Translations under genes and position numbers: made by a program
Part shown: positions 24,590-42,123 of the stretch, in pieces
How the letters are laid out: each line of letters starts with the position of its first letter
Numbering within the stretch: position 1 is the stretch's first letter
Notes under the pieces: generated by a model
The model's database searches: none
Told to the model about the DNA's origin: nothing
The model's input: the letters and a program-made list of their open reading frames with translations, nothing else
Source: an uncultured Neomegalonema sp.
GTDB taxonomy: Bacteria; Pseudomonadota; Alphaproteobacteria; Rhodobacterales; Rhodobacteraceae
Length of the DNA: 43,607 nucleotides
Assembly (NCBI GenBank): GCA_937958345.1
Contig: CALGNW010000005.1
Coordinates: 1-43,607, forward strand
Reading direction: 5' to 3'

Positions 24590-24692
24590 GCCCGCTCATC
24601 TGGGCCAATCGCCGCGTCGAACTGGCGCTATGGACCGCCGCAAAACGCCCTACGGTCGAAAGCACAACTTCTGATCCGGGGAACAAGCGATC

Positions 24693-25868: not shown

Positions 25869-25911
25869 CGCGGCACTGGCAAAGCGGCGTTCGCTGTTGC
25901 AGGGTCAGGCG

Positions 25912-27288
25912 ATGAAAACCAATGCTCTGCTTTCGGACCTCGCGGCGATCACGGGTGAACAGCACGTCCACACCGGCGCGGATCTGGCCGCGCGTGACCC
26001 CGGCTTTCACCCCGGCAATCTCGGCGCGGACCTCGCGGTTTATCCTGACACAACCGAACAGGTCGCCCGGATTGTCACCCTCTGCGCGGCACATAAAATT
26101 CCCGTCGTTCCTCAGGGCGGCCTGACCGGCCTGTCGGGCGCGGCCAGTTCGGATTCGGACAGCCTGATCCTCGGCCTGCGCCGCATGACAAAGATCGAGG
26201 CGCTTGATCCCCGCGCCAATACCGCCATCGTCCAATGCGGTGCGACGCTGCAATCGGTCGAGGCGGCGGCAAACGAACACGGCCTCAGCGTCGGCATTGA
26301 TCTGGGCGCACGCGGCACGGCAACGATCGGCGGCATGATCGCCACGAATGCGGGCGGGATGGAGGCGTTCCGAAACGGGTCGATGCGCGCCCGTGTTCTC
26401 GGGATCGAGGCGGTCACCGCGACGGGCGCGGTTCTGGATGACCTGACAGAAGTTCCGAAATGCAACGAGGGCTATGACCTCAAACATCTGTTCTGCGGGG
26501 CCGAGGGAACGCTCGGCATCGTCACCCGCGCTGTCCTGCGGCTGACCCCCGCCACCACGGCAACAACGACGCTGCTGATTGGGGTCGGCGACGCCGCCGC
26601 CGCGCTTGCGATCACCCGCGCCTGCCGCGCCGTACCGGATGCAGAGGTGCTGCAAACCGAGATTATGTGGCGCAACTATGCCGTTACGGTCGCCGCCGAA
26701 ATCGGCCTGTCCCACGTCCTTGGCTTTTGCGACGCGCCCGCGTATCTGCTGATCGAACTGTCGGCGGGTGATCCTGATGCCGCCCTCGAAACCCTGTTCG
26801 GTGATCCGGCGGTCGGCGCGGCAATGATCGACGCTGTCGTTGCCAAGAACGAGAAAGAGCGCGCCGAGATTTGGCGTATCCGCGAAGAAAGCTTTATCGT
26901 CGATAACACGGTTGCCCATTGCCAATGGTATGACATCTCGGTTCCGCTGGGCCGGATTGACGACACGATCACCGCCATCGACACGCGCCTCAACGCCCTT
27001 GATCCGGATTTAGGCATCTGGGTTATGGGCCATCTCGGTGACGGCAATCTGCACTACACCATCGGCAACGGCCAACCCCAGCCGCCCGCGCGACAGGCGG
27101 AAATTGCGGATGCGGTCTATGACGGGCTGAAAAAAACCGGCGGGGCGTTCTCTGCCGAACACGGCATCGGGACGGAAAAACGCGCCAGCCTCGCCAAATA
27201 CGGCGACCCCGAAAAACTGCGCCTGATGCGGGCGATCAAACACGCCTTCGATCCGCAGGGTATTATGAATCCGGGTAAGGTGCTGTGA
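25912..27288 (+). CDS. FAD-linked oxidase (GlcD / D-2-hydroxyacid dehydrogenase family)
   Basis: FAD_binding_4 features (VVPQGGLTGLSGAA, TIGGMIATNAGG) and C-terminal SAEHGIG.EK...DP.GIMNPGK. The ORF-track start at 25897 is TTG, so ATG at 25912 is preferred. Confidence 0.9.
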   Translation: MKTNALLSDLAAITGEQHVHTGADLAARDPGFHPGNLGADLAVYPDTTEQVARIVTLCAAHKIPVVPQGGLTGLSGAASSDSDSLILGLRRMTKIEALDPRANTAIVQCGATLQSVEAAANEHGLSVGIDLGARGTATIGGMIATNAGGMEAFRNGSMRARVLGIEAVTATGAVLDDLTEVPKCNEGYDLKHLFCGAEGTLGIVTRAVLRLTPATTATTTLLIGVGDAAAALAITRACRAVPDAEVLQTEIMWRNYAVTVAAEIGLSHVLGFCDAPAYLLIELSAGDPDAALETLFGDPAVGAAMIDAVVAKNEKERAEIWRIREESFIVDNTVAHCQWYDISVPLGRIDDTITAIDTRLNALDPDLGIWVMGHLGDGNLHYTIGNGQPQPPARQAEIADAVYDGLKKTGGAFSAEHGIGTEKRASLAKYGDPEKLRLMRAIKHAFDPQGIMNPGKVL

Positions 27289-27293
27289 CCGGC

Positions 27294-27324
27294 GCGGCGG
27301 CAGAGACATGCCCTCTGCCGCCGC
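27294..27324. terminator. GC-rich hairpin between convergent genes (possible bidirectional terminator)
   Basis: 12-bp perfect stem gcggcggcagag / ctctgccgccgc with a 7-nt loop, extendable by ccgg/ccgg. No clear T-tract. Confidence 0.45.
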
Positions 27325-27342
27325 ACCGGTACGCCTGAACAA

Positions 27343-28005
27343 TCATTTCAGGATGCGCGTCGTCTTGGTAGGGCGCGCCGCATAGGACGCCGCAAGCGTA
27401 TAATTCCCGAGCGCGCCGCTGTTGAAAAAGCTCTTATGCACTTTCTGAACATAGACGACGATGCCGAATGCGCCGTCCGGCAGCGCCTCGTCAAACAGGG
27501 ATGTGGGCGCGGCCACGTCAACGTCGCCATAGGGCTGCCATGTCCAATCGGTACGGTATGTGCCGCCGTCATTGGTAATTCCGGCGACCAGCACCTTCAT
27601 CTTCGGGTCGGCTCCGTCGAACGAAATCGCGGGTTCGAATGACAACGAACTCATACTGTTCATCGGCGAAGCCAGAGGATTCGTCTCAGTAACCAGAGGG
27701 TTGGTCGTCGTAATCGGAGGGTTCGTGCGCCCCGCCCCCGCCTCGCCCGCAATCATTGCGCCCAATCCGTTGCGCACGATCTGCTGGCGCTCCAGATCAA
27801 ACCGCGTTCCCGAAACGACGATTGACGCGATTGATGCGGCGGCGCGGTCAAGGTCGCGGTTCAGTCGGCTGGCGCTCGACAAATCCGTCAGACCGATGAA
27901 AACCGAAACGACCAGAGGCAGGATAATCGCGCCCTCGATGGCGGCAACGCCGCGCCGGTCACGGGTGAATTTTTTCGACAGCCCGTTGATTATTTTATTG
28001 CGCAC
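27343..28005 (-). CDS. TadE/TadF-like pseudopilin (Flp pilus assembly family)
   Basis: N-terminal RRGVAAIEGAIILPLVV TadE-type hydrophobic segment. GTG start with AGGAGGG upstream. Confidence 0.7.
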   Translation of the reverse strand: MRNKIINGLSKKFTRDRRGVAAIEGAIILPLVVSVFIGLTDLSSASRLNRDLDRAAASIASIVVSGTRFDLERQQIVRNGLGAMIAGEAGAGRTNPPITTTNPLVTETNPLASPMNSMSSLSFEPAISFDGADPKMKVLVAGITNDGGTYRTDWTWQPYGDVDVAAPTSLFDEALPDGAFGIVVYVQKVHKSFFNSGALGNYTLAASYAARPTKTTRILK

Positions 28006-28459
28006 TGGTGAACCCTCCTGCCCGTAAAATCAAATCATCACGCTCCAATCCCGGTGCAACCTTCGACACACGGTAAACCAGCGTCGCAATCGTCGCGCCG
28101 CCGCCTGTCGGCAGATTGATCGCAAAACTTCCCGGTGCAGGCGGTGGCGGCGCGCCTTGGACTGTAAGCGGCGCGACATTCACGCCCAGTCTTTCGGCAT
28201 CGCAATAGGCAAGGCCGAGGCGTGTACAGAAATTACCCTGCGTCAGGGTGGCCGCTTCACCCGACCGTATCTCTTCGGTCAACGCAGCCGATGCACCATC
28301 CAACGAGGACGCAATCATATACGTGTTGCCCAGATCAATCGCGAACAGCGACGCAAAGATCAGCGGCGGAACCAGAATGGCGAATTCAATCGCGGTCGCC
28401 CCGCTGTGCGCATGCCGGAACTGGCGGGCGCGTGAACGGCACTTGGCAAAAGGGATCAT
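27995..28459 (-). CDS. TadE-like pseudopilin
   Basis: N-terminal GATAIEFAILVPPLIF, the canonical TadE-like motif. ATGA overlap with the upstream gene. Confidence 0.8.
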   Translation of the reverse strand: MIPFAKCRSRARQFRHAHSGATAIEFAILVPPLIFASLFAIDLGNTYMIASSLDGASAALTEEIRSGEAATLTQGNFCTRLGLAYCDAERLGVNVAPLTVQGAPPPPAPGSFAINLPTGGGATIATLVYRVSKVAPGLERDDLILRAGGFTSAQ

Positions 28460-29658
28460 TGCCGCCCCCTGCCGTTGCCGTTGCCGTTGCCGCCGCGATC
28501 ACGGTTATTGCCGTTGCGGTTGCGGTTGGCGTTCGGATTGCCGTTGGCATACCCTGTGATAACCCCGCGCACCGTTGTCCCATTCTCATCGCTGGTTTCG
28601 GTAATATCCGTGCTGGTATGGGTCGTTTCCCCTTGAGCGGTCGCAACAGCAACGCCCCGGGCGTTCTCGGTCACGATTTCCGCACAGGACGACGACGACC
28701 CGTCACCGACACTCGCCGAGCCGGTGGCAAGACCGGGACCATCCAGCGATGCACTGCTTGTTGCCGTTGATCCGGCCCTGTTGTCGACGGCGACTTCGCC
28801 CGACCCATCGGTGATAAAGGCCTGATACGTGCCATCAGTCGCAAAGGACAACTCACGCCCCGCCGCCGCACCGGATATATTGCCGGTCAGGCACGCGCCG
28901 GAGCCGGAACCTCCGCCCGGATTTCCGGGGTTCGCGACGGTGGTCGGCGGCGGCGCTGTCGGAATACAGACAACCGGCGCGGCTGCACCGCTGACAATCG
29001 GTTGAATAATCACACTGTCCGAGCGCGACATGCCGGTTCTGGCGAAACTCGGTTGCCCGTCATCCCCAACGATAACGCGATCCAGCAAATTGTCGTCGCG
29101 GTCAACAATCGCAATCGAGATCGTGCGCGACGAGGTCAACTGCTCCGCCGTATCACCATCCGCCGAGAACCGCGTCGCATTCGTCACAATAATCGCGTCA
29201 CCGGCACAGCCGACGACCGGATCATCGACGTTGATCGGCGCGCTTGTGATCGGGCATGTCGTTTGCGCACTGATCTGGCCCAAATCATCACCAAGCAGCC
29301 CGCCGAAGGCCAGCTTCACATTGCCCGTCCCCTGAACATCGACCTCGGCACCGCCATTCGGAATGGTAATCCGAACCGCCGTGCCCTCGTTCAGCAAGAT
29401 CGATTCAGTGATCGAGTTTTGGGCAAGCTTCCCCGCAACGGTGCGCGCCTCCTGCTGGGATTGGCTGGACGCCATCGCCACAGCCGCGCTTTCACAGCTG
29501 AAGCGGGTTATCTGCATCAACTCCGTTTTCGCGCTGGATATCCGCGACAGATCAATCGCTGCCCCTGCGCCGACGACCATGACCGACAGGATAGACGCGC
29601 CGAGAATAGCCATCGAGCCGCTTTCATTCCGGCAAAAGCGAGCGATTGTTTTGTTCAT
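28456..29658 (-). CDS. TadG-like (Flp pilus-assembly TadE/G-like N-terminus) large pseudopilin with Asn/Gly/Arg low-complexity tail
   Basis: Start set at ATG 29658, giving MNKTIARFCRNESGSMAILGASILSVMVVGAGAAIDLSR. Gly/Ser/Thr-rich, beta-rich body. C-terminus is NGNPNANRNRNGNNRDRGGNGNGNGRGRQ. Confidence 0.7.
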   Translation of the reverse strand: MNKTIARFCRNESGSMAILGASILSVMVVGAGAAIDLSRISSAKTELMQITRFSCESAAVAMASSQSQQEARTVAGKLAQNSITESILLNEGTAVRITIPNGGAEVDVQGTGNVKLAFGGLLGDDLGQISAQTTCPITSAPINVDDPVVGCAGDAIIVTNATRFSADGDTAEQLTSSRTISIAIVDRDDNLLDRVIVGDDGQPSFARTGMSRSDSVIIQPIVSGAAAPVVCIPTAPPPTTVANPGNPGGGSGSGACLTGNISGAAAGRELSFATDGTYQAFITDGSGEVAVDNRAGSTATSSASLDGPGLATGSASVGDGSSSSCAEIVTENARGVAVATAQGETTHTSTDITETSDENGTTVRGVITGYANGNPNANRNRNGNNRDRGGNGNGNGRGRQ

Positions 29659-29903
29659 TGGGATACCTGAATTTGATGTACAACCAAAACCTAGCGGAAT
29701 CCCCCTGCCACAAAGTTTACGAACCGCGTAAAAATGCGAGTTTTTCTTCGTATCACGGCAATGTGAGCGCATTTGTTCAGAAACGTCCCTCTTCGGACGA
29801 ACCGAAAGAAAGTAACGGGGCGTTTCCGCATTGATTAATGTAACTAATTATCGCCGCGTTTGATTTCTATACAACTCGCGCAAACAGAGACCGTGATTCC
29901 GAA

Positions 29904-30323
29904 TTACGCAACCCGCGCATTGATCTCGATCAGGTTGCCTTCCGGGTCCTCGACATAGATATGCCGCATGCCCGGTATCGCGAAGGTTCCGGCATCGGAA
30001 TACCGGATACCCGCCGCGGTCAGCCGCGCCATCACGGCGTCCAGATCATCAACCTCGAACGCGACATGCCCGCCGACCGACGGGTTATGGCTCAGATTGT
30101 TCTTGCGGGCGAAGTCGTCATCGGGGGCAATCAGGTGCAGTCCGCTATGACTGTCGCGCCCGTCCGCAAACAGCGCCAGCCTGTCGGGATCGCCGGGGAT
30201 ATAGCCGCGCGCCTGCGGAAACTCCCACGCCTTTTCCTCCATGCCCATGATCGCGGCATAGAACGCCGCCGTCTTGCGGACATCGCGCGCCTGCAAGTTC
30301 ACATGGTGAATAGACCACGCCAT
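29904..30323 (-). CDS. VOC-family (glyoxalase/bleomycin-resistance/dioxygenase) protein
   Basis: 139 aa. HHVNLQARDV...FY and HVAFEVDD...YVEDPEGNLIE metal-ligand pattern. Confidence 0.85.
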   Translation of the reverse strand: MAWSIHHVNLQARDVRKTAAFYAAIMGMEEKAWEFPQARGYIPGDPDRLALFADGRDSHSGLHLIAPDDDFARKNNLSHNPSVGGHVAFEVDDLDAVMARLTAAGIRYSDAGTFAIPGMRHIYVEDPEGNLIEINARVA

Positions 30324-30703
30324 CAGGTTTCGGCCCGCTGCACCATGCGCCCGATCCGCCGCCCGCCGAGAATATGCACATGCAGGTGCGGCACTTCCTG
30401 TACGCCATCCTCGCCCGCATTGGCGATCATGCGAAATCCGTTGCCTCCTGCAACGGGCGCAACGCCCTCGGCCCGCGCGACCTTGCCGATGGCCCGCACA
30501 TAGGCGGCCAGCTCGGCATCCGACGCGTTCTCGGCGAAATCATCAAAGGACACATACGGCCCCTTCGGGATCACCAGCACATGAGTCGGCGCCTGAGGCT
30601 GAATGTCCCGAAAGGCCAGAACGTGATCGTCCTCGTACACGGTATCGTTCGGGATTTCGCCGCGCAGGATCTTTGCAAAGATATTCTGGTCGTCATAGCT
30701 CAC
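30323..30703 (-). CDS. HIT-family (histidine triad) protein
   Basis: GTG start at 30703 preceded by GGAGAA. IFAKILRGEIP and the histidine triad HLHVHILGG. The ORF-track N-terminal extension overlaps the accessory gene. Confidence 0.85.
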   Translation of the reverse strand: MSYDDQNIFAKILRGEIPNDTVYEDDHVLAFRDIQPQAPTHVLVIPKGPYVSFDDFAENASDAELAAYVRAIGKVARAEGVAPVAGGNGFRMIANAGEDGVQEVPHLHVHILGGRRIGRMVQRAET

Positions 30704-31029
30704 GTCGCATTCTCCAATTCCACCGGCGCGCCGTGGGGCGTCGCCTCGTATGCCCGCGCCCACGCATCGCGCCGCGCCTCGATCTCGGCTCCCGGCAGCG
30801 CACCGCGATCGAGCAGGCGTTCCAGCGCCGACAGCACCGCGCGGTAATATCCCTCGGTCGTGTCCTCGTGTTCGCGCACGGCAACGCCCAGCGCCTCGGC
30901 CCAATCGCCTGCCGAAAACACGTCGGCCCGCACGAGGCAATCCGCCATCGCGAGCGCCTGCGCCTGCCACGCCTCGTCAAAGACGGCATCGCCGTCGCGC
31001 CGCACGAGCGGGCCAAGCGGCCCGGACAT
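30700..31029 (-). CDS. Nitrile hydratase accessory (activator) protein
   Basis: About 109 aa from the ATG at 31029, 2 nt after the nthB stop. FDEAWQAQALAMA... is characteristic of the beta-homologue accessory protein. The stop overlaps the HIT start (GTGA). Confidence 0.8.
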   Translation of the reverse strand: MSGPLGPLVRRDGDAVFDEAWQAQALAMADCLVRADVFSAGDWAEALGVAVREHEDTTEGYYRAVLSALERLLDRGALPGAEIEARRDAWARAYEATPHGAPVELENAT

Positions 31030-31030
31030 G

Positions 31031-31684
31031 TCAGGCGGCGGCAAGGTAACTCTCCCACAGATCGAGGTAGATCACATCGTCATTGGTGACTTCGGGGAAC
31101 AGGTCCGCCGCCCGAAACGCCACCGTATAAAGGTGCTGCGCAATATCCTCGCCCCGCGCCTCGGCATCGGGCAAAGGGTGCGCGCCGTGATGCGCATGGA
31201 TCACCCCGACCGCATTACGGGCATAGGCAGGCAGGCGCGTATGCCCGCTATGCCCCTGTGCCGCCGTGCGCACCGAACCGCCCACGGCAAACGCCGCCTT
31301 CACATCCGTCTTGCGCTCGAAATTCGGCGGAAAGAACACCATCTCCCGCACATCTTCGCGGGTCAGTGCTTTAACATCCGCAGGCGCGGGGCCGGGGGCC
31401 TTGTGTCCGGTCACCTCGGCCAACTCCAGCACACCGTTATCAATCGCCATCGCCACCGAAGTCTGGAGCCACGAATCAAAGTAAGGCCGCGTCAGATAAT
31501 CCACCGGGTCAATCAGCTCGCGCACATGACGGAACCAGTCAATCGGGTTGGGCCGCTCGGCGCGCAGCGAGACGCTCAGCCCATAGGCCCGTGCATCATG
31601 CTCGCCGTGATAGGGGTCGTCCTCATGGGCGCGGTCAATCCGGCCAAAGCCCTCTTTGCCGCCGAGGTCATGCACACCATCCAT
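31031..31684 (-). CDS. nthB: Nitrile hydratase beta subunit
   Basis: MDGVHDLGGKEGFG N-terminus, 217 aa. Coupled to the alpha subunit gene (TAATG). Confidence 0.9.
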   Translation of the reverse strand: MDGVHDLGGKEGFGRIDRAHEDDPYHGEHDARAYGLSVSLRAERPNPIDWFRHVRELIDPVDYLTRPYFDSWLQTSVAMAIDNGVLELAEVTGHKAPGPAPADVKALTREDVREMVFFPPNFERKTDVKAAFAVGGSVRTAAQGHSGHTRLPAYARNAVGVIHAHHGAHPLPDAEARGEDIAQHLYTVAFRAADLFPEVTNDDVIYLDLWESYLAAA

Positions 31685-32325
31685 TATGCAATCCCCTTCG
31701 ACAGATCACGGTCGGTTCCGATCATCGCGTTACGCGTCACCAGCCTGGCCAGCGCCTCCTGATCCCACCCGTCTGTTCCGGCGGGACGCTGGGGCAGCAC
31801 CATGTAGCGCAGCTCGGCGGTCGAATCCCAAACCTTCACCGCCACATCATCGCCCAGCGCAACATCAAACTCCGCCAGCACCCCGCGCGGATCACGCACG
31901 GCACGGGCGCGGTATTCGGCGGCCTTATACCACGCCGGCGCCATCCCCAGAATCCCGAACGGATAGCAAGAGCACAGCGTACACACGACGAGGTTATGCA
32001 CCCCGTCGGTATTCTCGACCGCCTGCAAATGCCCCGTCGCCTGCCCCTGCACACCCAGTTCGGTGACGGCGGCGGCGGCATCGCTCAGCAACAGCGCCTT
32101 GAAATCCGCATCCAGCCAAGCCCGCGCCACCACCTGCGCCCCGCGCTTGGGACCGATTTCCTCGGTATAGGCTTCGATCCACGCATCCACCGCTTCGGGA
32201 TCAACCAGACCCTTTTCGACCAGCAGGCTCTCAATCGCCTTGACCCGCAGCGCCGGTTCGGGCGGCAAATGGCTGTGCAGATGGCGATGAATGTCGGTGA
32301 TTTTCTTCGGATCGAATGATGGCAT
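31684..32325 (-). CDS. nthA: Nitrile hydratase alpha subunit, cobalt type
   Basis: Metal-binding claw VVCTLCSCYP. The Thr/Tyr variant (VCTLCSCY) is the Co-type signature. GGAGAG RBS. Confidence 0.95.
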   Translation of the reverse strand: MPSFDPKKITDIHRHLHSHLPPEPALRVKAIESLLVEKGLVDPEAVDAWIEAYTEEIGPKRGAQVVARAWLDADFKALLLSDAAAAVTELGVQGQATGHLQAVENTDGVHNLVVCTLCSCYPFGILGMAPAWYKAAEYRARAVRDPRGVLAEFDVALGDDVAVKVWDSTAELRYMVLPQRPAGTDGWDQEALARLVTRNAMIGTDRDLSKGIA

Positions 32326-32375
32326 GGCAACGCTCTCCGTGATTCACGTCAGAGCGTAGCAAGCCTTTGGCACTT

Positions 32376-32399
32376 GTCATACCCCGCGTCATACCCCGC
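32376..32399. repeat. Perfect tandem 12-mer (gtcataccccgc x2) between the hxlR stop and nthA start
   Basis: Read directly from the sequence. Lies 51-74 nt upstream of the nthA ATG on the coding strand. Confidence 0.85.
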
Positions 32400-32410
32400 T
32401 GAAAGTCACC

Positions 32411-32779
32411 TCATTGACGTTTCAGCGCGTCCTCAATGCCCCACCTGTGCAGCGCTTCGACGATCGGAGAGAGACGGTGACCTTTCTCGGTCAAACTGTA
32501 CTCGACCTTTGGCGGCACGACCGGAAAGACCTTTCGGTCAACGATGCCGTCCCCCTCCAGCTCGCGCAGTTGTTTGGTCAGGCTGCGCTGCGTGACATCG
32601 CCGATCCGGCGCTTCAGTTCTGAAAAACGCAACGTACCGTCCAGCAGGTGATAGATCACGAGGCCCTTCCACTTGCCGGAAATCTGTTCCAGTGCCGCCT
32701 CGACAGGACAGCCATCGCTGCAATCATAGCTCTCGAATCTTTGCGGTTTCGGCCCGGCCAGCGGCCTCACGGTATCCAT
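32411..32779 (-). CDS. HxlR-family (MarR-like winged-helix) transcriptional regulator
   Basis: 122 aa. CPVEAALEQISGKWKGLVIYHL..GTLRFSELKRRIGDVTQRSLTKQLRELEGDGIV.R, the canonical HxlR pattern. Confidence 0.9.
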   Translation of the reverse strand: MDTVRPLAGPKPQRFESYDCSDGCPVEAALEQISGKWKGLVIYHLLDGTLRFSELKRRIGDVTQRSLTKQLRELEGDGIVDRKVFPVVPPKVEYSLTEKGHRLSPIVEALHRWGIEDALKRQ

Positions 32780-32806
32780 TATGTACCTATAGTCACAATT
32801 TGTGCG
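32743..32806. repeat. 64-bp direct repeat, copy A (hxlR codons 1-12 plus 27 nt upstream)
   Basis: 62/64 identical to 33924-33987. Contains the palindrome CACAA-T-TTGTG at 32794-32804. Confidence 0.95.
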
Positions 32807-32902
32807 ATGTTATACTTTCCGCACCCAGAGCGTTGAGTAGCTGTTATGGGTAGGAATGCAAAGTTCTACACGATCAAAAGTCTTTCATGTTCGTTTGACA
32901 TT

Positions 32903-33550
32903 ATGAGATTTTATCTGGTTTATCGCGGCCCGCTTTCGTCAACCCAAGGAAGGCGGGGTAAGCGCAAATGCGAGCGTATCGCAATAAGGCAACAGATCGC
33001 CCCACAAATGGAACGTCTGTGGGCGACGAACGAGAGCCTTATCAAACTTCAATACGATGCGCGCGTGCCCAGTCCTGAAAAGGCAGGCGGGTTCTTGGGT
33101 AGTACAAACAGCCCGTTTGATGGCCGTCGTGACGCACCGCCCAGCCACCCACCGCAAGATGGCTTTATCGACCTAACCGATCCAATCCAGAAAAAAGGAA
33201 AACTTTTTAAGCCTCTAGTTCGCGAGTCTCTCGATTTAACCTGCACTTTGAACATTCTGTTCTTGAGGCAAGAGCAGCCCGGTTCTTTGCTAAAGCAGGG
33301 CGGCGACATCGATAACAGGATCAAGACATTCATTGACGCGCTGGAGATGCCATCAGACGAATTGGAGGGCGACGAGAAAGATGGGATCAACTACCCGCTT
33401 TTGGAAAACGACACGTTGGTTCGCGGCATTGAAATTGATACTGAGCGCCTTCTCCTGCCAGAGGAAGATTTTCCAAACCAAGTGCATTTGGTTGTCGAAG
33501 TAGTGGTGCATGTGGAGCGGGTAGGTGAGTGGAATATCGCGCTCTTATGA
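32903..33550 (+). CDS. Orphan hypothetical protein with RusA-like motif spacing (GDIDNRIKTFIDAL ... ENDTLV); alternative start 32846
   Basis: Only long ORF in the AT-richer cassette. MRFYLVYRGPLSS... N-terminus, an acidic DxDN..K...DAL motif, then a downstream (E/D)ND..V strand. Confidence 0.5.
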   Translation: MRFYLVYRGPLSSTQGRRGKRKCERIAIRQQIAPQMERLWATNESLIKLQYDARVPSPEKAGGFLGSTNSPFDGRRDAPPSHPPQDGFIDLTDPIQKKGKLFKPLVRESLDLTCTLNILFLRQEQPGSLLKQGGDIDNRIKTFIDALEMPSDELEGDEKDGINYPLLENDTLVRGIEIDTERLLLPEEDFPNQVHLVVEVVVHVERVGEWNIALL

Positions 33551-33553
33551 GCG

Positions 33554-33712
33554 TCAGTCTTTTTGAGCGGGCGATGCGATCTTATCCAGCGCCCGCTCAA
33601 ACTTCTCATCAGCCTCTGTGGGGTTTAGTTCGCCATCGGCTTCGAGGCTTTCGAAGGCCTTCAGGAACCGCGTCGACTGCTCTTGCGTTTCTTCGCTCTT
33701 TTTTTTCGGCAT
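33554..33712 (-). CDS. Small hypothetical protein (52 aa, MPKKKSEETQEQSTRFLKAFESLEADGELNPTEADEKFERALDKIASPAQKD); not in the ORF track
   Basis: Hand-translated: ATG at 33712, TGA at 33554-33556. It resembles small charged ORFs seen in alphaproteobacterial mobile DNA. It contains a 12-bp-stem inverted repeat (33562-33573 / 33590-33601). Confidence 0.35.
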   Translation of the reverse strand: MPKKKSEETQEQSTRFLKAFESLEADGELNPTEADEKFERALDKIASPAQKD

Positions 33713-33727
33713 CAGTTCGCCCGTGAA

Positions 33728-33925
33728 CTATGTTTCACAAGTGAGGCGCTCGCCGACGATGCAGCCCAAGGCAAGATCAGCGCGCGCTTCGTCGTTCACG
33801 CCCTTGCCGACGCGGTTTGAGTAACGGAAATCAGACTCGGCAAGATAGCGGTGAAGGTGTGCTTCACTGCAATGATGATAGACACCGCACATCCCGCGTT
33901 TGTAGATCGAAAAGAACCCTTCGGC
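33728..33925 (-). pseudogene. IS1595-family (ISXO2-like) transposase, C-terminal fragment only
   Basis: Hand-translated: AEGFFSIYKRGMCGVYHHCSEAHLHRYLAESDFRYSNRVGKGVNDEARADLALGCIVGERLTCET*. This matches the conserved C-terminal block of IS1595 transposases. No N-terminal zinc-ribbon or DDE region is present, and the fragment abuts repeat copy B. Confidence 0.7.
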
Positions 33926-33987
33926 GGTTTCGGCTCGGCCAGCGGCCTCACGGTATCCATTATGTACCTATCGTCACAATTTGTGCG
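33924..33987. repeat. 64-bp direct repeat, copy B (orphaned hxlR 5' fragment, ATG at 33960, plus upstream palindrome at 33975-33985)
   Basis: 62/64 identical to copy A, offset 1181 bp. The fragment encodes MDTVRPLAEPKP and then runs out of frame into the transposase remnant. Confidence 0.95.
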
Positions 33988-34054
33988 TACTTGCTTAAAC
34001 CGTATCCGAATGACAGGTCTGGTCAACATTCACGCTGCACAAAGGGCAATGACC

Positions 34055-34342
34055 ATGGCGCTGACAATTCTCGCACAGATCACAGCCGTTCCGGGCAAAG
34101 AAGACCTTGTTCGGGCCGAGTTGCTGAAACTCGTTCCGATTACCCGCGCCGAACAGGGCTGTATCCAATACGACCTGCATGTCGATAACGAAAATCCGGG
34201 CTTCTTCGTCTTTTATGAAAACTGGGAAACCCGCGCGTTGTGGCAAACGCATATGAGCGCGCCGCACCTTGCCGCTTACATGGCGGCGACGGACGGCGCG
34301 GTATCGGATTTCGTTCTCAATGAAATGAGCGCAATCGGCTAG
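34055..34342 (+). CDS. Antibiotic-biosynthesis-monooxygenase (ABM/YgiN-like quinol monooxygenase) family protein
   Basis: 95 aa from the ATG at 34055 (AAAGGG 8 nt upstream). ...GCIQYDLH......F.FYENWE...AL..H..APH..A, the typical ABM ferredoxin-like fold pattern. Confidence 0.8.
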   Translation: MALTILAQITAVPGKEDLVRAELLKLVPITRAEQGCIQYDLHVDNENPGFFVFYENWETRALWQTHMSAPHLAAYMAATDGAVSDFVLNEMSAIG

Positions 34343-34385
34343 AATCCCGCGCCATCAAAAACCGGCGCGTATCGCGGAATGTGCC

Positions 34386-35546
34386 CTACCCGCGTTTCAA
34401 CGCCAGCGACGCCATGCGCGATTGCTGATCGGGTGCAAAGCGGTACGCGCCGTGCGGCTGGGCATAATCCAGCAGGTCTTCGGCCCGCACACCAGCACCG
34501 AGGTTATGCACGATCATCGGATTGCCGGTTTTCGGATCGCGCCGGTTGACCACGACACCGATATGCGGCTCGCCGCCGCTCAGACGCCACGTAATCACGT
34601 CGCCGGGCTGATAATCCGACCCCAGCGGAATGGCCGCGCCGACCCGCTCGAAAAACGCCTCCAGATTCACCACGCGGCGGTGGTCGATATTCGGGTCGGC
34701 TTTTTTCAGGCCGTAGATTTTCTTGCTGGGATAGGCGGAAAACGCGCGCTTCATATCCTCGTGGACCATGCTTTGCAGGTCGATGCCGAGGCCGCGGTAA
34801 CTGCGGATGACAACATCGGTACACACGCCCGTATCCTCGGAAACATCTCCCCACGGATAGCCGATTTTCTTATAGGCGGCGACATACGCGACATTCGGGT
34901 TCAGCCGCGACAGCGCGGAATCCGACAGTTGATTGCCGAACGCGGGCGTATGCGCATTGCGCACGCGCGGGGCGGGGGCCGCGATGCTGCGCGCCTCTGA
35001 CGGTTGATAGGCCGCCTTCAGCGCGGCGACATTATAGGTCGTTGAACGGGGTACGCGCGGCGCGTCGGTATCGACCGGATCATCGCGCACCGGCGCCATC
35101 TGGCCCCGGCCCAGCGGTCGGGCCTGTTGCGTAAAGCCGGGCGATGCCAGCGTATAGGCGGGCGCCGCACTGACGGTCCGCTCGGGAACAGCCGCAACCG
35201 TTGCGGCCGGAACCTCGGTATAGGCAACCGCCTGAGTCTGCACCACCACCGGAACCGGAGCCGGAGCAGCAACGGATACAGGCACAGCCGCCACGGCGGT
35301 CGGCGCATCATACGGCCCCAGATCAATATCCTGCGGCACGGGCGCGGCGGCGGTGTTTTGCGGTTCGGGGGCCGCCTCGATAAATTCGGGCAGCGCCACA
35401 GCGCCCGCCGACAATCCTGCGTCCGTCTGCACAACAGGCACAGTGTCAACGGCTGCTGTCTCTACGGGAACAAATGACGGCGTGGCCGCACATCCCGCAA
35501 CGCCAAAACCCAGCGCCAGCGCGCTGACAACACGGATCGGTTTCAT
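34386..35546 (-). CDS. DUF1287-domain lipoprotein with long Ala/Pro/Val-rich linker
   Basis: ATG at 35546 (AAGGA upstream) gives [19 protein letters not shown], a lipobox. The C-terminal [22 protein letters not shown]...DHRRV...GDVITW...PHIGVV matches DUF1287. Confidence 0.8.
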
Positions 35547-35745
35547 GGTTTCGTCCTTTGCCTGCCTGCCCTTTGCGGGGCTTCGGATCAGGCTATACAC
35601 TGAAATCCCTTACAGTTCATCTTTCAGTAGCCATACAAATCAAGAACACGGGCAACACCCTGTCACGTTTTCGCAAGAAACCGCGCAAGCCCTTGGAGCG
35701 GCCCGCCCCGACACCGTAACAAGGAACCAACCGCAGGAGGATTTT

Positions 35746-38049
35746 ATGCGCCGCACCGCCATTCTCGTCTTTTCCCTCATGGCTCTCTCCAACGCCGCCA
35801 TCGCTGATCCTCTGCCCGGCGCACGGCTTGATGCCGATGCACTGGCCCGGATCGCGAATGCGCCGCCGGTCTCGCCGCCCCGCACCCGCTATGTCGATGC
35901 GTCGGGCGCGCCGGTTTATACGAACCGTCTGGTCTTTGAACGCTCGCCCTATCTGCGCCAGCACGCGCATAATCCGGTCAACTGGCGACCGTGGGGGCCG
36001 GAGGCGCTGGCCGAGGCCGAAGCGCGCGGCGTGCAGGTCTTTCTCTCGGTCGGGTATGCGACCTGTCACTGGTGTCACGTGATGGAGGAAGAAAGCTTTG
36101 ACAACGCCGACATCGCCCGCGTGATGAACGAGAATTTCGTGCCGGTCAAAGTCGACCGCGAGACCCTGCCCGACATCGACTCGCAATACATGCTGGCGAC
36201 GCAAATCCTGACGGGGCGCGGCGGCTGGCCGAACAACCTGTTCCTGATGCCCGACGGACAGCCCATCGTTTCAACCAGCTATCAGCCGCCGAATGCGTTT
36301 CTTGATACGCTCACCAATCTCTCGCAGGACTGGCGCAACCCCGAGGGCCGGACCGCGATGGCCGAACAGGCCGCGTCCGTCTCCGAGTTTGTCCGCCTGA
36401 TTGCCGGATCACGCAGCGCCGCGCAGGACATCACCGAGGCGACATTCGAAAAGGCAACGGCGGGCCTGCTCGAAGATCACGACAATTTTCTGGGCGGTTT
36501 CGGCAAGGGGCCGAAATTCCCGAACGAGACAATGATCCGCTATCTGCTCGACCGGTACGAGCGCACGGGCGACCGCAGCGCAGCCGACGCGGCACTGGTG
36601 ACCTTGCGCCATATCGCGGCAGGCGGGATTCACGATCACGTCGGCGGCGGCTTTCACCGCTATGCGGTTGATGTGAACTGGCGCACCCCGCATTTCGAAA
36701 AGATGCTCTATAATCAGGGATTGCTGACGCGCAATTACCTGCAAGCCTATCGCCTGACCAAAGACCCGGTTTTCGAGCGCGCCGCGCGCCGTGCGCTGGA
36801 TTATGTCATCCGCGACATGACCGCCCCCGAGGGCGCGTTCTACGCCGCCGAGGATGCCGTCAGCCCCGTTACAGCGGGCGGCAAAACCGAAGAGGGCGCG
36901 TATTACGCATGGACCTACGACCAGCTCGACGCCGCACTCGGCGGTCAGGCGGACATGATCCGCAGCGCCATCGGCCTCGACCAGCCGCCGACGATACCGG
37001 CAGGCTCGGTTGTGCATGTCAGCCCGGATCGCCCGTCGGATTTTGCTGCGCTTGATCCGGCACTCGAACAAATGCGTCAGGCCCGCGAAGGCCGCCCGCA
37101 TCCGATCATCGACACCAAACTGATTGCGGGCTGGAACGGCCTGATGATCCGCGCACTGGTGGACGGGGCCGAGACACTGAACCAGCCGCGCTATCTTGAT
37201 GCGGCCAAGCGCGCGACCGAATTTGTGACAACCCGCATGCTGTCCCCCAACGGCGATCTTGCCCGCGCATGGGCCTCCGGCCCGCTCGAAGACGGCGCGC
37301 TGCGCGATTATGCGTGGATGGGCCTTGCTCTTGTAGCCCTTGCGGATGCAACGGACGACACGCGCTATCTCGGGCTGGCGCAAAAGATGAGCGACGAGAT
37401 TATCGCGCGCTTTGTCGATGCGCCGAACGCCCCCCTGCGCATGGCGCAACAGGCCGGACCGCTGGGGTCGACGTATGATGTGATCGAGGGATCGACGCCG
37501 ACGGGCAACGCCGCCGCCCTCGAACTTTTCGGCATGCTGTCACGGCGCGGCGAGGACAACGAGGCCGTCGATAATATCCAGCGCGCCGACAACCTGCTGG
37601 GCGCATTGTCCGGCTCCATCGTGCAGGCGCCCGAGGCGAATATCTCGTCGGTGACGGCGGCGGCGGTGTACCGCGACGGCGAGACGGGAACCACCCGTCG
37701 CCTCGGCGGCGGCACGGCAACCGCGCGCCTTGATCTGCAAGGCGACCAACTGACTTTGCATCTCGATTTTGCCCCCGGCTGGCACGCCAATTCGCATCAG
37801 CCGCTGAACCCCGACCTGATCGCAACCGCGCTCAGCGGGTCGGGACTGGGCAGTGTTGCGTATCCCAATCCGAAAATGATCTCGCTCGGATTTCAGGACG
37901 AACCGCTTGCGGTGCTGGAGGATCAGGCGAAAATCAACGCCACCGTCACGCCCGAAACCGAAAGCGCCGAGCTGACAATACAAATCTGCGGAACCGACCG
38001 CTGCCTACCGCCTGAACAACACTTGTTCCGACTGCCCGGCTCGATCTGA
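35746..38049 (+). CDS. Secreted thioredoxin-domain protein (DUF255/YyaL-like, (alpha/alpha)6 domain) with C-terminal DsbD-alpha-like domain
   Basis: ATG at 35746 with AGGAGG upstream. Signal peptide ...[24 protein letters not shown] thioredoxin-like motif. C-terminal ...WHANSH...[12 protein letters not shown]. The ORF-track extension to 35353 overlaps the neighbouring gene. Confidence 0.85.
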
Positions 38050-38079
38050 GGGGGTGCGGTTCGTCCCGCGCGGCGCGGC

Positions 38080-39141
38080 CTAACCTGCTGCGTCCGCGCT
38101 GGAGGTCAGAGCGGCGGCGCGGCGCGGGAACAGGCGTGGCATCGGAATCCGCGCCCAGCGTTGTTCCTGTTCGGTCGGAACCCCTGCCGCCTTCATCGCA
38201 TCGATTGACCACGCGCGGCGGTCGCGCAAAATACCGGCATAGAAATCGAGTGCGCCGGGCCGGTTATAAACGCCCCAATGGCACACTTTTCGGGGCGGTC
38301 CGCCGCCAATCACGACACCGCGCACCGACAGCCATTCCTGCAACGCCGGACTGTCGAGTTGCAGATCGAGCCAGCCGTCAAAATCCTCGCCCATGCCGTG
38401 TGACCCGACGCAAATCGGCGTCACGCCCTTGATCTTTGGCGCGAAGCGTTCGACCAGCACATCGAAAAAATCATTCTCCCGCGCGACCACGCTGTAAATC
38501 TCGGGCTTGCGCGCAGGGGCGGCGAGATCAATCGCCTGCATCGTGTCGCGGGCCACGCTGACCAGTTCAGCCGGTCCCAGCAGCAGCACGCGCCCGACCC
38601 GCTCCAGCACATCCGTCCGGCCCCGCCGCGCCGCAACACGCAACGCCGTCAGCGCAACACGCGCGCCGAGGCTGTGCACAAAAATGTCGATGTCGCGCGC
38701 CGGATAAGCTTCGGCCAGCATTTCGAGCGTGCGCAGCAGGGCACGCCCCGCCTCGCCCGCCTCCTGATAGGCACGGCAAAACGCGCCCATGCGCTGGTTC
38801 GGACGGCTCGACCATGCGAACCCGACACAAAGGCCGTCGATGCCCCACGGGTCGCGCTCGCGAAACCCGAGGCCGGCGGGCCAGCTTGCGGGCCGTTGCC
38901 AGCGGTCGGCCTCCACACGCTCCGGGTCAAAATGATAAAGGTAATCGTGCGGATTGGCAGCGTTGGGGTCGTAGGGGTCGAATTTATACCCGTGGACCAT
39001 CACGACCAGCGGCTGTGATTTTCGAAGGGCGGGCGCGGCGGCGCGAATGGTGGCAGGCGAAATTTCAGGAGCCTCCGCGCCCAGCGCGGGGTCGAAAACC
39101 AAGGGGCTGCGCCCCGAAACGGCGAGCCTGAGCATCGCCAT
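38080..39141 (-). CDS. Alpha/beta-hydrolase-fold protein (DUF900-like esterase/lipase)
   Basis: PLVVMVHGYKFDP and the nucleophile elbow FVHSLGARVAL. AGGAGG RBS. Confidence 0.65.
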   Translation of the reverse strand: MAMLRLAVSGRSPLVFDPALGAEAPEISPATIRAAAPALRKSQPLVVMVHGYKFDPYDPNAANPHDYLYHFDPERVEADRWQRPASWPAGLGFRERDPWGIDGLCVGFAWSSRPNQRMGAFCRAYQEAGEAGRALLRTLEMLAEAYPARDIDIFVHSLGARVALTALRVAARRGRTDVLERVGRVLLLGPAELVSVARDTMQAIDLAAPARKPEIYSVVARENDFFDVLVERFAPKIKGVTPICVGSHGMGEDFDGWLDLQLDSPALQEWLSVRGVVIGGGPPRKVCHWGVYNRPGALDFYAGILRDRRAWSIDAMKAAGVPTEQEQRWARIPMPRLFPRRAAALTSSADAAG

Positions 39142-39373
39142 AAGTCACCTCCTGTTTGGCCCGTATCGTACTGCCGGTTCCGCTTTGCCCGGCTTAACCG
39201 GTGTAACGACGATCCCGCGGCGTTGTTCCAACCTGAAACGGCCCTTGACGCGGGCGGTTACACATCTAGCCTTGCACGTATGATCGCGGCGTTTCCGTCG
39301 CTCGTGCTCACATCTTACATCGCTGATGCTCGCGTCATCTGTGCGCATGCTCACATAATGCAGGAAATATTCC

Positions 39374-41701
39374 ATGAAGTTCGGAATCGGACAGTCCGTT
39401 TCGCGTGTCGAAGACCCCCGATTGCTGAAGGGTGCGGGCAATTATGTTGATGACATTACCTTGCCGGATCAGCTTTACGGTATGGTATTTCGCTCGCCCT
39501 ATGCGCATGCACGCCTGATTTCATTGGATATTTCGGACGCTGTTGCCACGGCGGGCGTTCACGCCGTCTATACGGCGGGCGATCACAGATTGCGTGGATT
39601 AGGCGAACTTAAGACTCAAATGCCCGTTAAAAATGCCGACGGAACCGACGGCGCGTATCCCGGCCTGCCCCATCTGGCCGAGGGCATCGTCCGCTATGTT
39701 GGACAACCCGTCGCCTTTATCGTGGCCGACAGCATCCGCGCCGCCAAGGATGCCGCCGATCTGATTATGGCTGATTTCGAGGACTTGCCCGTTGTCGTCG
39801 ACGGCGAGGCGGCTCTGAACAGCGACGCGCCGCAACTGTTCGATGATATTCCCCGCAACCGCGCCTATGATTGGGAGGTCGGAGATAAGGCCGCGACCGA
39901 TGCCGCCTTTGCCGCCGCTGCGCATGTGTCAACGCTGCGGATGGAGAACACGCGGGTGATCGTCAACGCGATGGAACCGCGCGCGATCAACGCGGCCTTT
40001 GCGAACGACCGCTGGGATATTCACGTCTCGACTCAGGGCGCACACGCAATGCGCGGGCAAATTGCAGCCGTGCTGGGCGCGGACCCCCAACAACTGCGCG
40101 TGCGCGTGCCCGATGTCGGCGGCGGGTTCGGCATGAAGCTGATGCTGCATCCCGAATACGGCCTCGCCTGCGCCGCCGCGCGCGATTTAGGCCGCCCTGT
40201 GAAATGGACCGGCGACCGTTCCGAATCCTTCCTCAGCGATCTTCAGGGCCGCGATCTGACCACCTATGCCGAGGCGGCCTGCGATGCAGACGGAAAGATA
40301 CGTGCGATGCGGTTGAGTTCGGTCTCCAACCTCGGAGCGTATCCATCGCGCGCGGGACCGTCTTGTCACACCACATTCTGCGGAGACCTCGCGCCCACGG
40401 TCTATAACATCCCGACGATCCATAACCGTGTGCAGGGTGTCTATACCAACACGACCCCGACCGACGCCTATCGCGGCGCAGGCCGGCCCGAACAGAACTA
40501 TATTATGGAGCGGCTGATCGACCGTGTCGGCGCGGACCTCGGGATTGCGCAGGACGAGATCAGACGCCGCAACCTCGCCACCCCCGATATGATGCCGTGG
40601 ACAACCGCGCTGGGTATCCCGTTCGACAGCGGCGATTTCCCCGGCATTCTGGAGGCAACCGTCGAGCGCGCCGATGTGAAGGGCTTCCCCGCCCGCCGCG
40701 CCGCCGCCGAGGCACGCGGCAAGCTGATGGGCATGGGCGTCGTGTCCTATATGGAGCGCACCGGCGGCGCACCCGAGGAAACAGCGCGTATTGAAATCTT
40801 CCCCGCCAAGGACGGTCAGCCCGACCGCGTTCGGATCGAGGTCGGCACACAGTCCACCGGCCAAGGCCATGAAACCGCGTTCCCGCAACTCGTCCACGCC
40901 AAACTCGGCGTGCCCTATGAGTGTATCGAATGGGTGGCGGGGGATTCCGACAGCCTGCCCCAAGCTGGCGGGACGGGCGGATCACGCTCGGTCATCATGG
41001 CCAGCAAGTCATTTTTTGCCGCCTCGGATGAAGTGATCCGGCTTGCGAAGCCCGGCGCTGCGGATGAGTTGGAAGTCTCAGAAGCGGATCTGGAATTTGA
41101 AATCGAAAACGGCGGGCAATTCCGCGTGGTCGGAACCGACAAAACCGCGACGCTGTTCAGCGCCGTGTCGCGGCTGGAGGGCGGGACGCTGAAAGGCGAG
41201 GCAAAGGTCGGCGGGGGCAGCAAGTCTTTCCCGAACGGATGCCATATCTGCGAGGTTGAGATCACGCCCGAAACCGGCGACGTCAGGCTGACGAAGTATA
41301 CCGTCGTTGACGATTTCGGCACGCTGCTGAACCCGATGCTGGCCATCGGACAGATCGTCGGCGGCGTGGCACAGGGCGTCGGAGAGGCGCTGCACGAAGC
41401 GGCAATTTATGACCCCGAAAGCGGCCAGCCTCTGACAGGATCGTTCATGGATTACCAGATGCCGCGCGCCTACGACCTGCCCGCCATCGACGTCGATTTC
41501 CGTCCGACTTTCTGCACGACAAATCCGCTGGGCGCGAAAGGATGCGGCGAGGCGGGGACTGTCGGCGCGGCGGGCTGTACCGTCATTGCCGTGCTGGATG
41601 CCCTGCGCCCGTTCGGCATTAAAGAGATCGACATGCCCGTCACACCTGCGAAAGTGTGGCGGGCGTTGCAGGGCGCGTCGTACAAAGAGGCAGCGGAATG
41701 A
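39374..41701 (+). CDS. Xanthine dehydrogenase/aldehyde oxidase family molybdopterin-binding subunit (form-II CoxL-like)
   Basis: 775 aa. The active-site loop AYRGAGRPE matches the form-II CoxL-type AYRGAGR rather than the CO-dehydrogenase form-I AYRCSFR. Starts MKFGIGQSV.RVEDPRLL.G.G.Y.DD. Confidence 0.9.
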   Translation: MKFGIGQSVSRVEDPRLLKGAGNYVDDITLPDQLYGMVFRSPYAHARLISLDISDAVATAGVHAVYTAGDHRLRGLGELKTQMPVKNADGTDGAYPGLPHLAEGIVRYVGQPVAFIVADSIRAAKDAADLIMADFEDLPVVVDGEAALNSDAPQLFDDIPRNRAYDWEVGDKAATDAAFAAAAHVSTLRMENTRVIVNAMEPRAINAAFANDRWDIHVSTQGAHAMRGQIAAVLGADPQQLRVRVPDVGGGFGMKLMLHPEYGLACAAARDLGRPVKWTGDRSESFLSDLQGRDLTTYAEAACDADGKIRAMRLSSVSNLGAYPSRAGPSCHTTFCGDLAPTVYNIPTIHNRVQGVYTNTTPTDAYRGAGRPEQNYIMERLIDRVGADLGIAQDEIRRRNLATPDMMPWTTALGIPFDSGDFPGILEATVERADVKGFPARRAAAEARGKLMGMGVVSYMERTGGAPEETARIEIFPAKDGQPDRVRIEVGTQSTGQGHETAFPQLVHAKLGVPYECIEWVAGDSDSLPQAGGTGGSRSVIMASKSFFAASDEVIRLAKPGAADELEVSEADLEFEIENGGQFRVVGTDKTATLFSAVSRLEGGTLKGEAKVGGGSKSFPNGCHICEVEITPETGDVRLTKYTVVDDFGTLLNPMLAIGQIVGGVAQGVGEALHEAAIYDPESGQPLTGSFMDYQMPRAYDLPAIDVDFRPTFCTTNPLGAKGCGEAGTVGAAGCTVIAVLDALRPFGIKEIDMPVTPAKVWRALQGASYKEAAE

Positions 41702-42123
41702 AGCATCTTCTCATCACGATTACAGGCTGCGCCGTGATGGCGGGTTGCGGCGTCGGACCGGCCTTTGAAGATACAAGACCGATGCGCAACACCAATGATA
41801 TGCAGCAACAGACCATTGCGGGCGCGACCTGTACGCGCGGCGAAAAACCGTTCACGCTGATCGTTGACCGCGACGGAACCGCGACAGGCCGCCTGATCGC
41901 GCCGCCGCCGCCCAAGGGCGAAAAGCGCAGGATCATGCCCGAATTTGCCGCTGCGCTGACCCCGATCGACCGCGACACGGTCGAGTTGGTGGTCGCAGAC
42001 GGCATCGTCACGGGCGAGGCCGTGCGCGAGCGCATGACGGCGGTTCTGAAAAACGGCGAGGCCATCCTGCGCGGTGACAGCTTTGACTGCACCGGCATCC
42101 GCGTGCGCCCGGCAGGAGCATAA
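41698..42123 (+). CDS. Hypothetical lipoprotein
   Basis: ATGA overlap with the molybdoenzyme stop. MKHLLITITGCAVMAGCG signal peptide with lipobox. Confidence 0.55.
   Translation: MKHLLITITGCAVMAGCGVGPAFEDTRPMRNTNDMQQQTIAGATCTRGEKPFTLIVDRDGTATGRLIAPPPPKGEKRRIMPEFAAALTPIDRDTVELVVADGIVTGEAVRERMTAVLKNGEAILRGDSFDCTGIRVRPAGA

Follow-up and report, generated by a model that had tools for sequence, protein, structure and literature searches.

Insertion sequences (IS) of the IS1595 family as a rule duplicate 8 bp of their target (PMC8101967), and the groups that this source lists after Siguier et al. 2009 are ISPna2, ISH4, IS1016, IS1595, ISSod11, ISNwi1 and ISNha5. Homology-facilitated illegitimate recombination (HFIR), in the account given by PMC6382021 with reference to de Vries & Wackernagel 2002, Prudhomme et al. 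2002 and Meier & Wackernagel 2003, is the RecA-dependent joining of foreign DNA through one homologous anchor and a microhomology of 3-10 bp. Here, we analysed a stretch of 43,607 nucleotides from an uncultured Neomegalonema sp. (GenBank assembly GCA_937958345.1, contig CALGNW010000005.1, positions 1 to 43,607 of the forward strand), hereafter referred to as the window. In this window hxlR, which encodes an HxlR-family regulator, is separated from its ancestral divergent partner, a gene for a monooxygenase with an ABM domain (the ABM gene), by 1117 bp of DNA that lie between two 64-nt direct repeats. This insert is the transposase-distal ~1.12 kb of an IS1595-family transposon of ~1.9 kb. The 64-mer is a recombination scar, neither a target-site duplication (TSD) nor an attachment (att) site, and a truncated IS1595-family transposon with an HFIR scar is the probable reading of the locus.

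The two repeats are identical at 62 of 64 positions and are 1181 bp apart, start to start (Table 1). Each comprises the ATG and the first 12 codons of hxlR together with 27 nt of upstream DNA. A preliminary description of the window had given these coordinates, identity, offset and content, and all of them were reproduced. The insert had also been described as richer in AT, and the counts given for it, 23 G/C in 60 at 33181-33240 and 34 in 60 at 32461-32520 within hxlR, are exact; the G+C content is 51.6% in the insert, 59.3% in the window and 61-63% in the flanks. A 34-nt core of the 64-mer occurs exactly twice in the window, with no occurrence expected from 100 shuffles. The 64-mer itself was counted twice in the window, once in L087, once in L088 and not at all in the remaining fetched loci (L- and P-numbers are labels of compared loci or contigs and of database proteins, respectively). 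A generic repeat family, one of two outcomes that the preliminary description had named as refuting its reading, was rejected on these counts of two copies here and one in each same-species relative. When metagenome contigs were searched with a relaxed 35-nt operator/start pattern, one orthologous locus was retrieved, L086, which belongs to a different genus.

The contigs L087 and L088 were confirmed as empty sites of the same species with a single 64-mer. The window HxlR falls in a 90% cluster with two more proteins, which come from these contigs, and the gene order of both contigs matches that of the window: DUF1287, ABM, hxlR, and the alpha and beta subunits of nitrile hydratase (NHase), with hxlR directly divergent from the ABM gene. 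The reverse complement of L087 aligns to window positions 27673-32806 (98.7% identity) and 33924-41951 (98.4%), and in L087 these alignments share exactly 64 bp, its single 64-mer. L088 shows the same two-flank alignment, with a 64-bp overlap on a single 64-mer and 99.1-99.2% identity. The flanks of the insert are collinear with the empty-site contigs over 24405-41951. Furthermore, hxlR is directly divergent from the ABM gene at seven distant loci with 66-78% HxlR identity (L006, L008, L012, L013, L015, L017 and L086). The idea of the preliminary description that a head-to-head hxlR/ABM pair with one 64-mer was split by the insertion is borne out by the two empty sites, where both flanks overlap on one 64-mer, and by the seven divergent pairs. 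The site is occupied in 0 of 2 same-species and 0 of 7 distant hxlR-ABM loci, which gives no sign of recurrent use. A scan of genome contigs with HxlR yielded no relative above 77% identity, and thus deep empty sites only; an exact-sequence look-up of the window HxlR and ABM proteins returned nothing usable. Near-identical copies of the insert were absent from the plasmid and phage collections: by blastn, the transposase stub alone matched plasmids, at 70-74%, and phages gave no match.

The left junction of the insert, at about 32803-32807, is a genuine transposon end. The 24-nt sequence TGCGATGTTATACTTTCCGCACCC agrees at 19 of 24 positions with the terminal inverted repeats (IR) of the intact elements in L092 and L001, and at 16-18 of 24 with those of six more. 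It is the single best IR match on both strands of the whole window, the runner-up scoring 16/24, and a second IR copy was found nowhere in the window at up to 3 mismatches. The window IR begins with (G)GCG, and the IRs of the relatives start with GG. The GCG can be assigned to the target or to the IR, which leaves the insertion point ambiguous by 3-4 nt; the IS terminus may begin with GCG 32804-32806, the last 3 nt of the left 64-mer. This transposon end sits within a conserved operator-like motif upstream of hxlR.

Intact relatives show what the complete element would have looked like. The elements of L092 (1893 bp) and of L095/L096 (1914 bp) comprise a homologue of the passenger gene of the insert, then a convergent small open reading frame (ORF), then an IS1595-family transposase of 308 amino acids (aa), and are bounded by 24-nt inverted repeats that begin with GGCG. 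The L001 element (2828 bp) has the same parts and a DUF3800 gene. In this closest intact relative, the DUF3800 gene (L001:4071-4880) is located between the small ORF and the transposase gene; as this extra gene shows, the cargo of this IS1595 group is modular. The L089 element has four different passenger ORFs. TSDs of 8 bp were found for L001 (CCTTGACG), for L095/L096 (TTTTTTTT) and for a related plasmid element, L090 (AAAAAAAA), which agrees with the earlier judgement that 64 bp is too long for the target duplication of such an IS. At the window insert an 8-bp TSD was not found; the flanking repeat is 64 bp long, and its right copy abuts transposase-internal DNA. A long TSD was rejected, as the right 64-mer copy is not in contact with an IS end. 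Along with the missing end of the transposon, the partner of the original TSD was lost.

The right end of the insert lies inside the transposase gene. The 3' remnant of this gene matches the Pfam family DDE_Tnp_IS1595 at positions 131-152 of 153 with an E-value of 7e-5 and 23.3 bits, which is under the 27-bit cut-off. By tblastn against full-length annotated IS1595-family transposases it has 58-67% identity (E 1e-22 to 1e-24), the match to the 305-aa L001 transposase covering residues 239-301 at 67% identity; it is an IS1595 transposase as a remnant, not as a functional gene. By blastn, homology to the intact L092 element extends to 33923 and no further, which corresponds to position 1112 of 1893 in the element, and the transposase frame (...EGFFSIYKRG) is open right up to the junction with the right 64-mer. 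The missing part of the transposon, ~780 bp, comprises transposase codons 1 to ~240 and the second IR, and further transposase fragments were not found in the window. The N-terminal domain Zn_ribbon_IS1595, which is present in the intact relatives L001, L091, L092, L095 and L096, is absent from the insert, deleted with codons 1 to ~240. With one IR, no Zn-ribbon and no DDE core, the window copy is immobile. A search for a closer full-length transposase gave fragments of 52-112 aa only, with up to 74% identity where at least 95% of the query was covered. The 64-aa transposase stub retrieved 58 database proteins (P0232-P0289), every one of them 52-112 aa long; either C-terminal IS1595 fragments are commonly annotated, or word-based candidate selection favours short proteins.

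On the minus strand, the right junction reads ...CCGAAACCGC followed by CGAAGGGTTC, and the empty site reads ...CCGAAACCGC followed by AAAGATTC. At the equivalent of the joint (slash), the homologous transposase genes read ACC GTT/GAA GG (L001) and ACC ATC/GAA GG (L092). On the hxlR side, the candidate partner is ...GAAACCGC, and a microhomology of 3-4 nt, ACC(G), with ...AAACCGC of hxlR is plausible from these homologues. The right junction is an illegitimate joint, and neither a transposase product nor a recombinase core.

These two ends bear on the origin that the preliminary description had proposed, namely Campbell-type or site-specific integration of a small circular element from which no integrase remains. 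The latter point stands, as Pfam detected no integrase in any of the insert ORFs; the proposal itself is not supported, since the left end is an IS1595 terminal IR, the right end is a break in mid-transposase, and an integrase need not be assumed at all. In its site-specific form, a once larger, phage-like element would have used an att site in the 5' end of hxlR and decayed, leaving the 64-mers as attL and attR. The lower G+C content of the insert and direct repeats that include the 5' end of a gene, like some att sites, would fit such an origin. A repeat of 64 bp is indeed present at both boundaries, but its edges towards the insert fall on a transposon IR and on a truncated ORF, an arrangement that is not expected from site-specific recombination: the left end is inserted as in the relatives with 8-bp TSDs, and the right one cuts a transposase codon. 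Neither integrase nor excisionase is encoded in the insert, the flanks are collinear with the empty sites, 9 of 9 other hxlR-ABM loci examined are unoccupied, and neither a tRNA nor similarity to phage records was found. Pfam on the insert ORFs, a tRNA scan and an IR search of the window likewise gave no integrase, tRNA or second IS end, and both the Rfam and tRNA scans were empty. With no recombinase and with an IR and a cut ORF as ends, an att site was rejected, and we consider this origin extremely improbable.

The two repeat copies differ at positions 12 and 49 of the 64-mer, where the left copy has C and A and the right copy T and C. L087 carries C/A, as does the left copy, and L088 carries T/C, as does the right copy. 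At position 49 the outgroups have A (tatag), and C is derived and common to the right copy and L088. By our own estimate, two random mutations after the duplication would give these bases in phase with a probability of the order of 1e-4. Since the mismatches match strain alleles in phase, the two copies represent two alleles of the population. Single-nucleotide polymorphisms (SNPs) are also clustered around the insert: 20 window-private SNPs were found in ~1.9 kb of flanking DNA (31729 to 34668) and 13 in ~7.2 kb elsewhere, and the divergence from L088 is 2.5% in 31717-32806 (1.09 kb) versus 0.62% elsewhere (Fisher p = 4e-8). This cluster is consistent with an imported tract. Over 24405-37943 the comparison with L088 is patchy, with 8 SNPs in 25007-25306, 7 in 25907-26206 and long stretches with 0-1 per 300 bp; the patchiness points to frequent homologous recombination in the population. 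Two 6-bp indels separate the window from L088, at 28525-28530 and at 35256. A hypervariable segment of the DUF1287 gene (35262-35422), seen in an ungapped comparison, was rejected as an artefact of a 6-bp indel.

Two alleles in one contig could also suggest an assembly chimaera, in which the contig would merge two strains through a shared IS and no single genome would carry both 64-mers. The window and its relatives do come from metagenome assemblies. The junction between transposase and 64-mer, however, shares at most a few bases, so that a k-mer graph could not create it and it must exist in real reads; moreover, two independent events with the same IS type within 64 bp in different strains would be needed, which is far less parsimonious. 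We regard a chimaera as highly improbable. Campbell-type integration in its strict sense would start from a circle of 1181 bp, made of the 64-mer and the truncated IS and excised illegitimately in an IS-bearing strain, which would integrate by a single RecA crossover in the 64 bp of homology of an empty-site strain. It would explain direct repeats that flank exactly one unit and copies with different alleles, and neither copy need be chimaeric provided that the crossover took place within the outer 11 or 15 nt. However, 60% of the crossover positions would give chimaeric copies, and none is seen; the circle lacks functions for replication or transfer, and 64 bp of homology would serve RecA very poorly as a substrate. 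The formation of the circle would still need the same illegitimate join of transposase and hxlR, and the divergent tract, which extends ~1 kb into the flanks, would not be brought by a circle with 64 bp of homology. Such an integration is very unlikely.

HFIR probably accounts for the anatomy of the locus. A transposon of ~1.9 kb, with the layout inverted repeat, RusA-like passenger gene, small ORF, transposase gene, inverted repeat, would have landed in the operator-like motif, 27 nt upstream of hxlR. Some 780 bp of it would then have given way to an illegitimate join that linked the broken transposase gene with codon 12/13 of hxlR, 61-64 bp behind the insertion point, and the target between the breakpoints, kept on both sides, would have become the 64-bp repeat. 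A single event is the most likely route, in which an empty-site allele received a fragment from a strain with the IS, or an IS-bearing allele one from an empty-site strain; one side would have recombined homologously in the flank, and a short microhomology would have served for the illegitimate join of the other end. In one version, a donor fragment that ran from within hxlR through the 64-mer into the IS, as far as transposase codon ~240, would replace the hxlR segment of the recipient up to codon 12/13. The mirror image is equally possible, with an IS-bearing recipient and an empty-allele donor fragment that ended 56-64 nt beyond the insertion point. Seen against the empty sites the flanks are seamless, and 33923/33924 joins unrelated sequences. 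Donor and recipient DNA can be distinguished by the L087-type and L088-type copies and by the SNP cluster, although later recombination could mimic this. What we observed directly is an empty site, a transposon end, the point of truncation and a pair of alleles; from these we infer the single-step HFIR route, its direction and its microhomology.

A two-step history within one lineage would lead to the same final anatomy, with the right junction inside the transposase gene and the left one at a true IS end. If two sister chromosomes, each with the full IS, underwent an illegitimate exchange, a tandem A-64-IS(1..X)-64-IS-B would result; in a variant, a transposase-induced break at the transposase-proximal end would be repaired, with the 8-bp TSD priming the synthesis. 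The complete IS would subsequently be removed, either through its precise excision or in a homologous exchange with an empty allele, and the allele difference would arise at that time. The mosaic SNP patches imply frequent recombination and so make a later import of an L088-like right copy and flank plausible. Against it, two or three rare events are invoked where one suffices, the intermediate structure was found in no genome, and the second IS would have to be lost precisely with the truncated one retained, which is awkward. We judge this history unlikely.

Several points also weigh against a truncated transposon with an HFIR scar. The population is mosaic and has further divergent patches, and the allele difference between the copies could come from later homologous recombination. 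The SNP excess lies on both sides of the insert, and import of the complete rearranged locus may have followed its formation. A close parental IS copy was not found, the nearest passenger protein being 80% and the nearest transposase fragment 74% identical, and for this reason the junction microhomology can only be inferred. A full-length insertion intermediate occurs in none of the 3 available genomes of the species. Furthermore, the window is a metagenome-derived contig, and both junctions are known from the assembly alone. The most complete reconstruction, which joins all of the following, is accordingly put forward as quite doubtful: the locus would be a natural, datable footprint of HFIR between co-existing strains of a marine alphaproteobacterium; the size of the fragment would agree with transfer by a gene transfer agent or a similar small-fragment route; only the passenger half of the transposon would have been captured, and the intact RusA-like gene kept because it is useful to the host; and the 64-bp repeats would be RecA-reversible, restoring the native hxlR/ABM control region. 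As to the route of uptake, a gene transfer agent, conjugation or transformation is speculation.

Table 1 Coordinates of the features at the hxlR-ABM locus of the window.
Feature	Position	Strand	Description
hxlR	32411..32779	-	Intact 122-aa HxlR-family regulator; Pfam HxlR E 1.2e-33
Left 64-mer	32743..32806		First base of hxlR codon 13, codons 12 to 1, 27 nt upstream
Terminal inverted repeat, passenger-side end	32803..32826	+	TGCGATGTTATACTTTCCGCACCC
Passenger gene	32903..33550	+	215 aa from Met 32903, the start of most homologues; longest ORF from 32846, 234 aa
Terminator-like hairpin with T-run	33539-33554		
Small ORF	33554..33712	-	52 aa, acidic, directly downstream of transposase; ..STRFLKAFESLE.. 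in the window
15-nt inverted repeat	33562..33601		93% complementary; between convergent passenger gene and small ORF
IS1595-family transposase 3' remnant	33728..33923	-	Last 65 codons, EGFFSIYKRGMCGVYHHC...CET*; equals residues ~239-305
hxlR' stub	33796..33960	-	Native start and 12 codons, then out of frame into transposase remnant; 54 aa
Illegitimate junction	33923..33924		Transposase codon ~240 joined to hxlR codon 12/13
Right 64-mer	33924..33987		Runs straight into native intergenic region
Operator-like motif	33961..33996		hxlR orientation CAAGTA/CGCACAAATTGTGACgATAGGTAC; slash, insertion point of the transposon end in the left copy
ABM-domain monooxygenase gene	34055..34342	+	Pfam ABM E 4.7e-19; ancestral divergent hxlR partner

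The gene calls made in the preliminary description for HxlR, ABM and the IS1595 remnant hold at the Pfam values given above and in Table 1. The nearest neighbours in the window are the NHase alpha and beta genes to the left and the DUF1287 gene to the right, as assigned by Pfam. HxlR is 98% identical to P0109 of the empty-site contig L087, and the two genes differ by 5 synonymous and 3 conservative non-synonymous codons. The native region upstream of hxlR is kept to -27 only and is separated from its remainder, whereas the ABM gene retains the whole native intergenic region plus the hxlR' stub, which is in frame within a 77-aa ORF (33796-34029). Across genera, the operator-like motif reads CAAGTA followed by CGCACAAATTGTG..TATAGGTAC, the transposon end lying directly after CAAGTA, and it is kept in 7 loci of different genera. 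A near-palindromic CAAGTACGCACAAATTGTG..TATAGGTAC is located just upstream of hxlR in the window and in L006, L008, L012, L013, L015 and L017, and is thus conserved across genera with HxlR proteins of only 66-77% identity; it is likely to be an HxlR operator that also serves the divergent ABM gene. The conserved motif as a whole is presumably the HxlR operator and promoter region. A promoter scan gave nothing beyond the expectation from shuffles. With the regulator cut off from the conserved operator and the target gene keeping it, an altered hxlR/ABM regulation is predicted, and regulation is probably altered in the strain of the window. The base directly 5' of the hxlR ATG (32780 and 33961, position 38 of the 64-mer) is tri-allelic in three strains that are ~99% identical: L087 has C and L088 has G, and both window copies have T, which is the ancestral state to judge from the outgroups.

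The passenger gene had been called an orphan ORF in the preliminary description. This does not hold, since the 234-aa ORF has 107 homologues at E<=1e-3, the best with 80% identity, and is a conserved passenger gene of this transposon type. The homologues are cargo of IS1595-family transposons in at least 4 independent contexts, and they also occur in phage contigs near terminase and portal genes (L002-L004) and as a solitary chromosomal gene (L005). Their coordinates are L001:3197-3904, L092:1579-2280, L095:4001-4726, L002:5253-5897 and L005:6001-6642. The protein family is unannotated. Its invariant residues are G153, D154, D156, N157, R158, K160, D164 and D189, which form an invariant GGDxDNRxK...D motif followed by an acidic pair. 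Weak matches to Pfam RusA were found in 18 of 38 family members, the best, at E 0.039, being below threshold, and hhalign placed the motif on RusA residues 67-85, with an E. coli RusA sequence that was entered by hand. The AlphaFold2 (AF2) model of the passenger protein has a predicted local distance difference test (pLDDT) score of 87 and a predicted template-modelling (pTM) score of 0.83, with a beta-alpha-beta-alpha-beta-beta order. Its top Foldseek neighbours in BFVD are RusA-like resolvases, at E-values of 3e-3 to 1e-2 only. The PDB gave no RusA match for the passenger protein by profile or by Foldseek, tblastn of the protein gave no match in phage records and two distant plasmid matches that are annotated as hypothetical, and neither this gene nor the small ORF had a match in PHROGs or PADLOC. 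We describe the passenger protein as RusA-like and do not file it as a member of the RusA family.

Small-ORF counterparts of 46-53 aa are found at the same position in L090 (3916-4056), L089 (4975-5121), L001 (3910-4056), L093 (2009-2170) and L096 (1109-1258), with the consensus ..QLDRFKEAARELE... An acidic small ORF is located directly downstream of the transposase gene in every examined element of this IS1595 subgroup. No match for it was found in any library searched, including Pfam, PHROG and PADLOC. We take it to be an accessory gene that is conserved in this transposon group.

The locus serves as a caution: foreign DNA can be bounded by a long direct repeat that is neither an att site nor a target duplication. 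As a clean natural case, it allows a recombination between strains to be reconstructed from the empty site and the transposon end, together with the truncation point and the phase of alleles, and it defines a recurrent type of IS1595-family transposon whose RusA-like gene and conserved small ORF are as yet uncharacterised. The 64-bp repeats would permit a rare RecA-mediated reversion to the native arrangement.

Compared with known systems, the insert shares with the IS1595 family a transposase C-terminus of the DDE_Tnp_IS1595 type, an IR with (G)GCG and passenger ORFs between the 3' end of the transposase gene and the distal IR. It differs in that the window copy is truncated and its 64-bp flanking repeat was not made by a transposase. 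As in the att systems of prophages and genomic islands, direct repeats with a gene end flank foreign DNA of lower G+C content and the gene is intact; unlike them, the insert has no recombinase, its ends are a transposon IR and a truncated gene, and the site is not reused in relatives. The passenger protein resembles the RusA Holliday-junction resolvase (PF05866) in its D-x-D-N-x-x-K-x-x-x-D-A-L motif with a following acidic (D/N)D, in its predicted order of strands and helices and in its RusA-like BFVD neighbours. However, it is ~90 residues longer, with a large insertion, it lies below every curated threshold, and its gene is found on a transposon, as a phage gene or as a solitary chromosomal gene. 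HFIR is usually accompanied by the loss of some recipient DNA. It was defined experimentally in naturally transformable bacteria, and the outcome in the window is a 64-bp duplication. As in HFIR, one side of the insert is seamless with the homologous flank and the other is non-homologous, the alleles differ, and a divergent tract abuts the insert. The locus is a further example of already known kinds of event.

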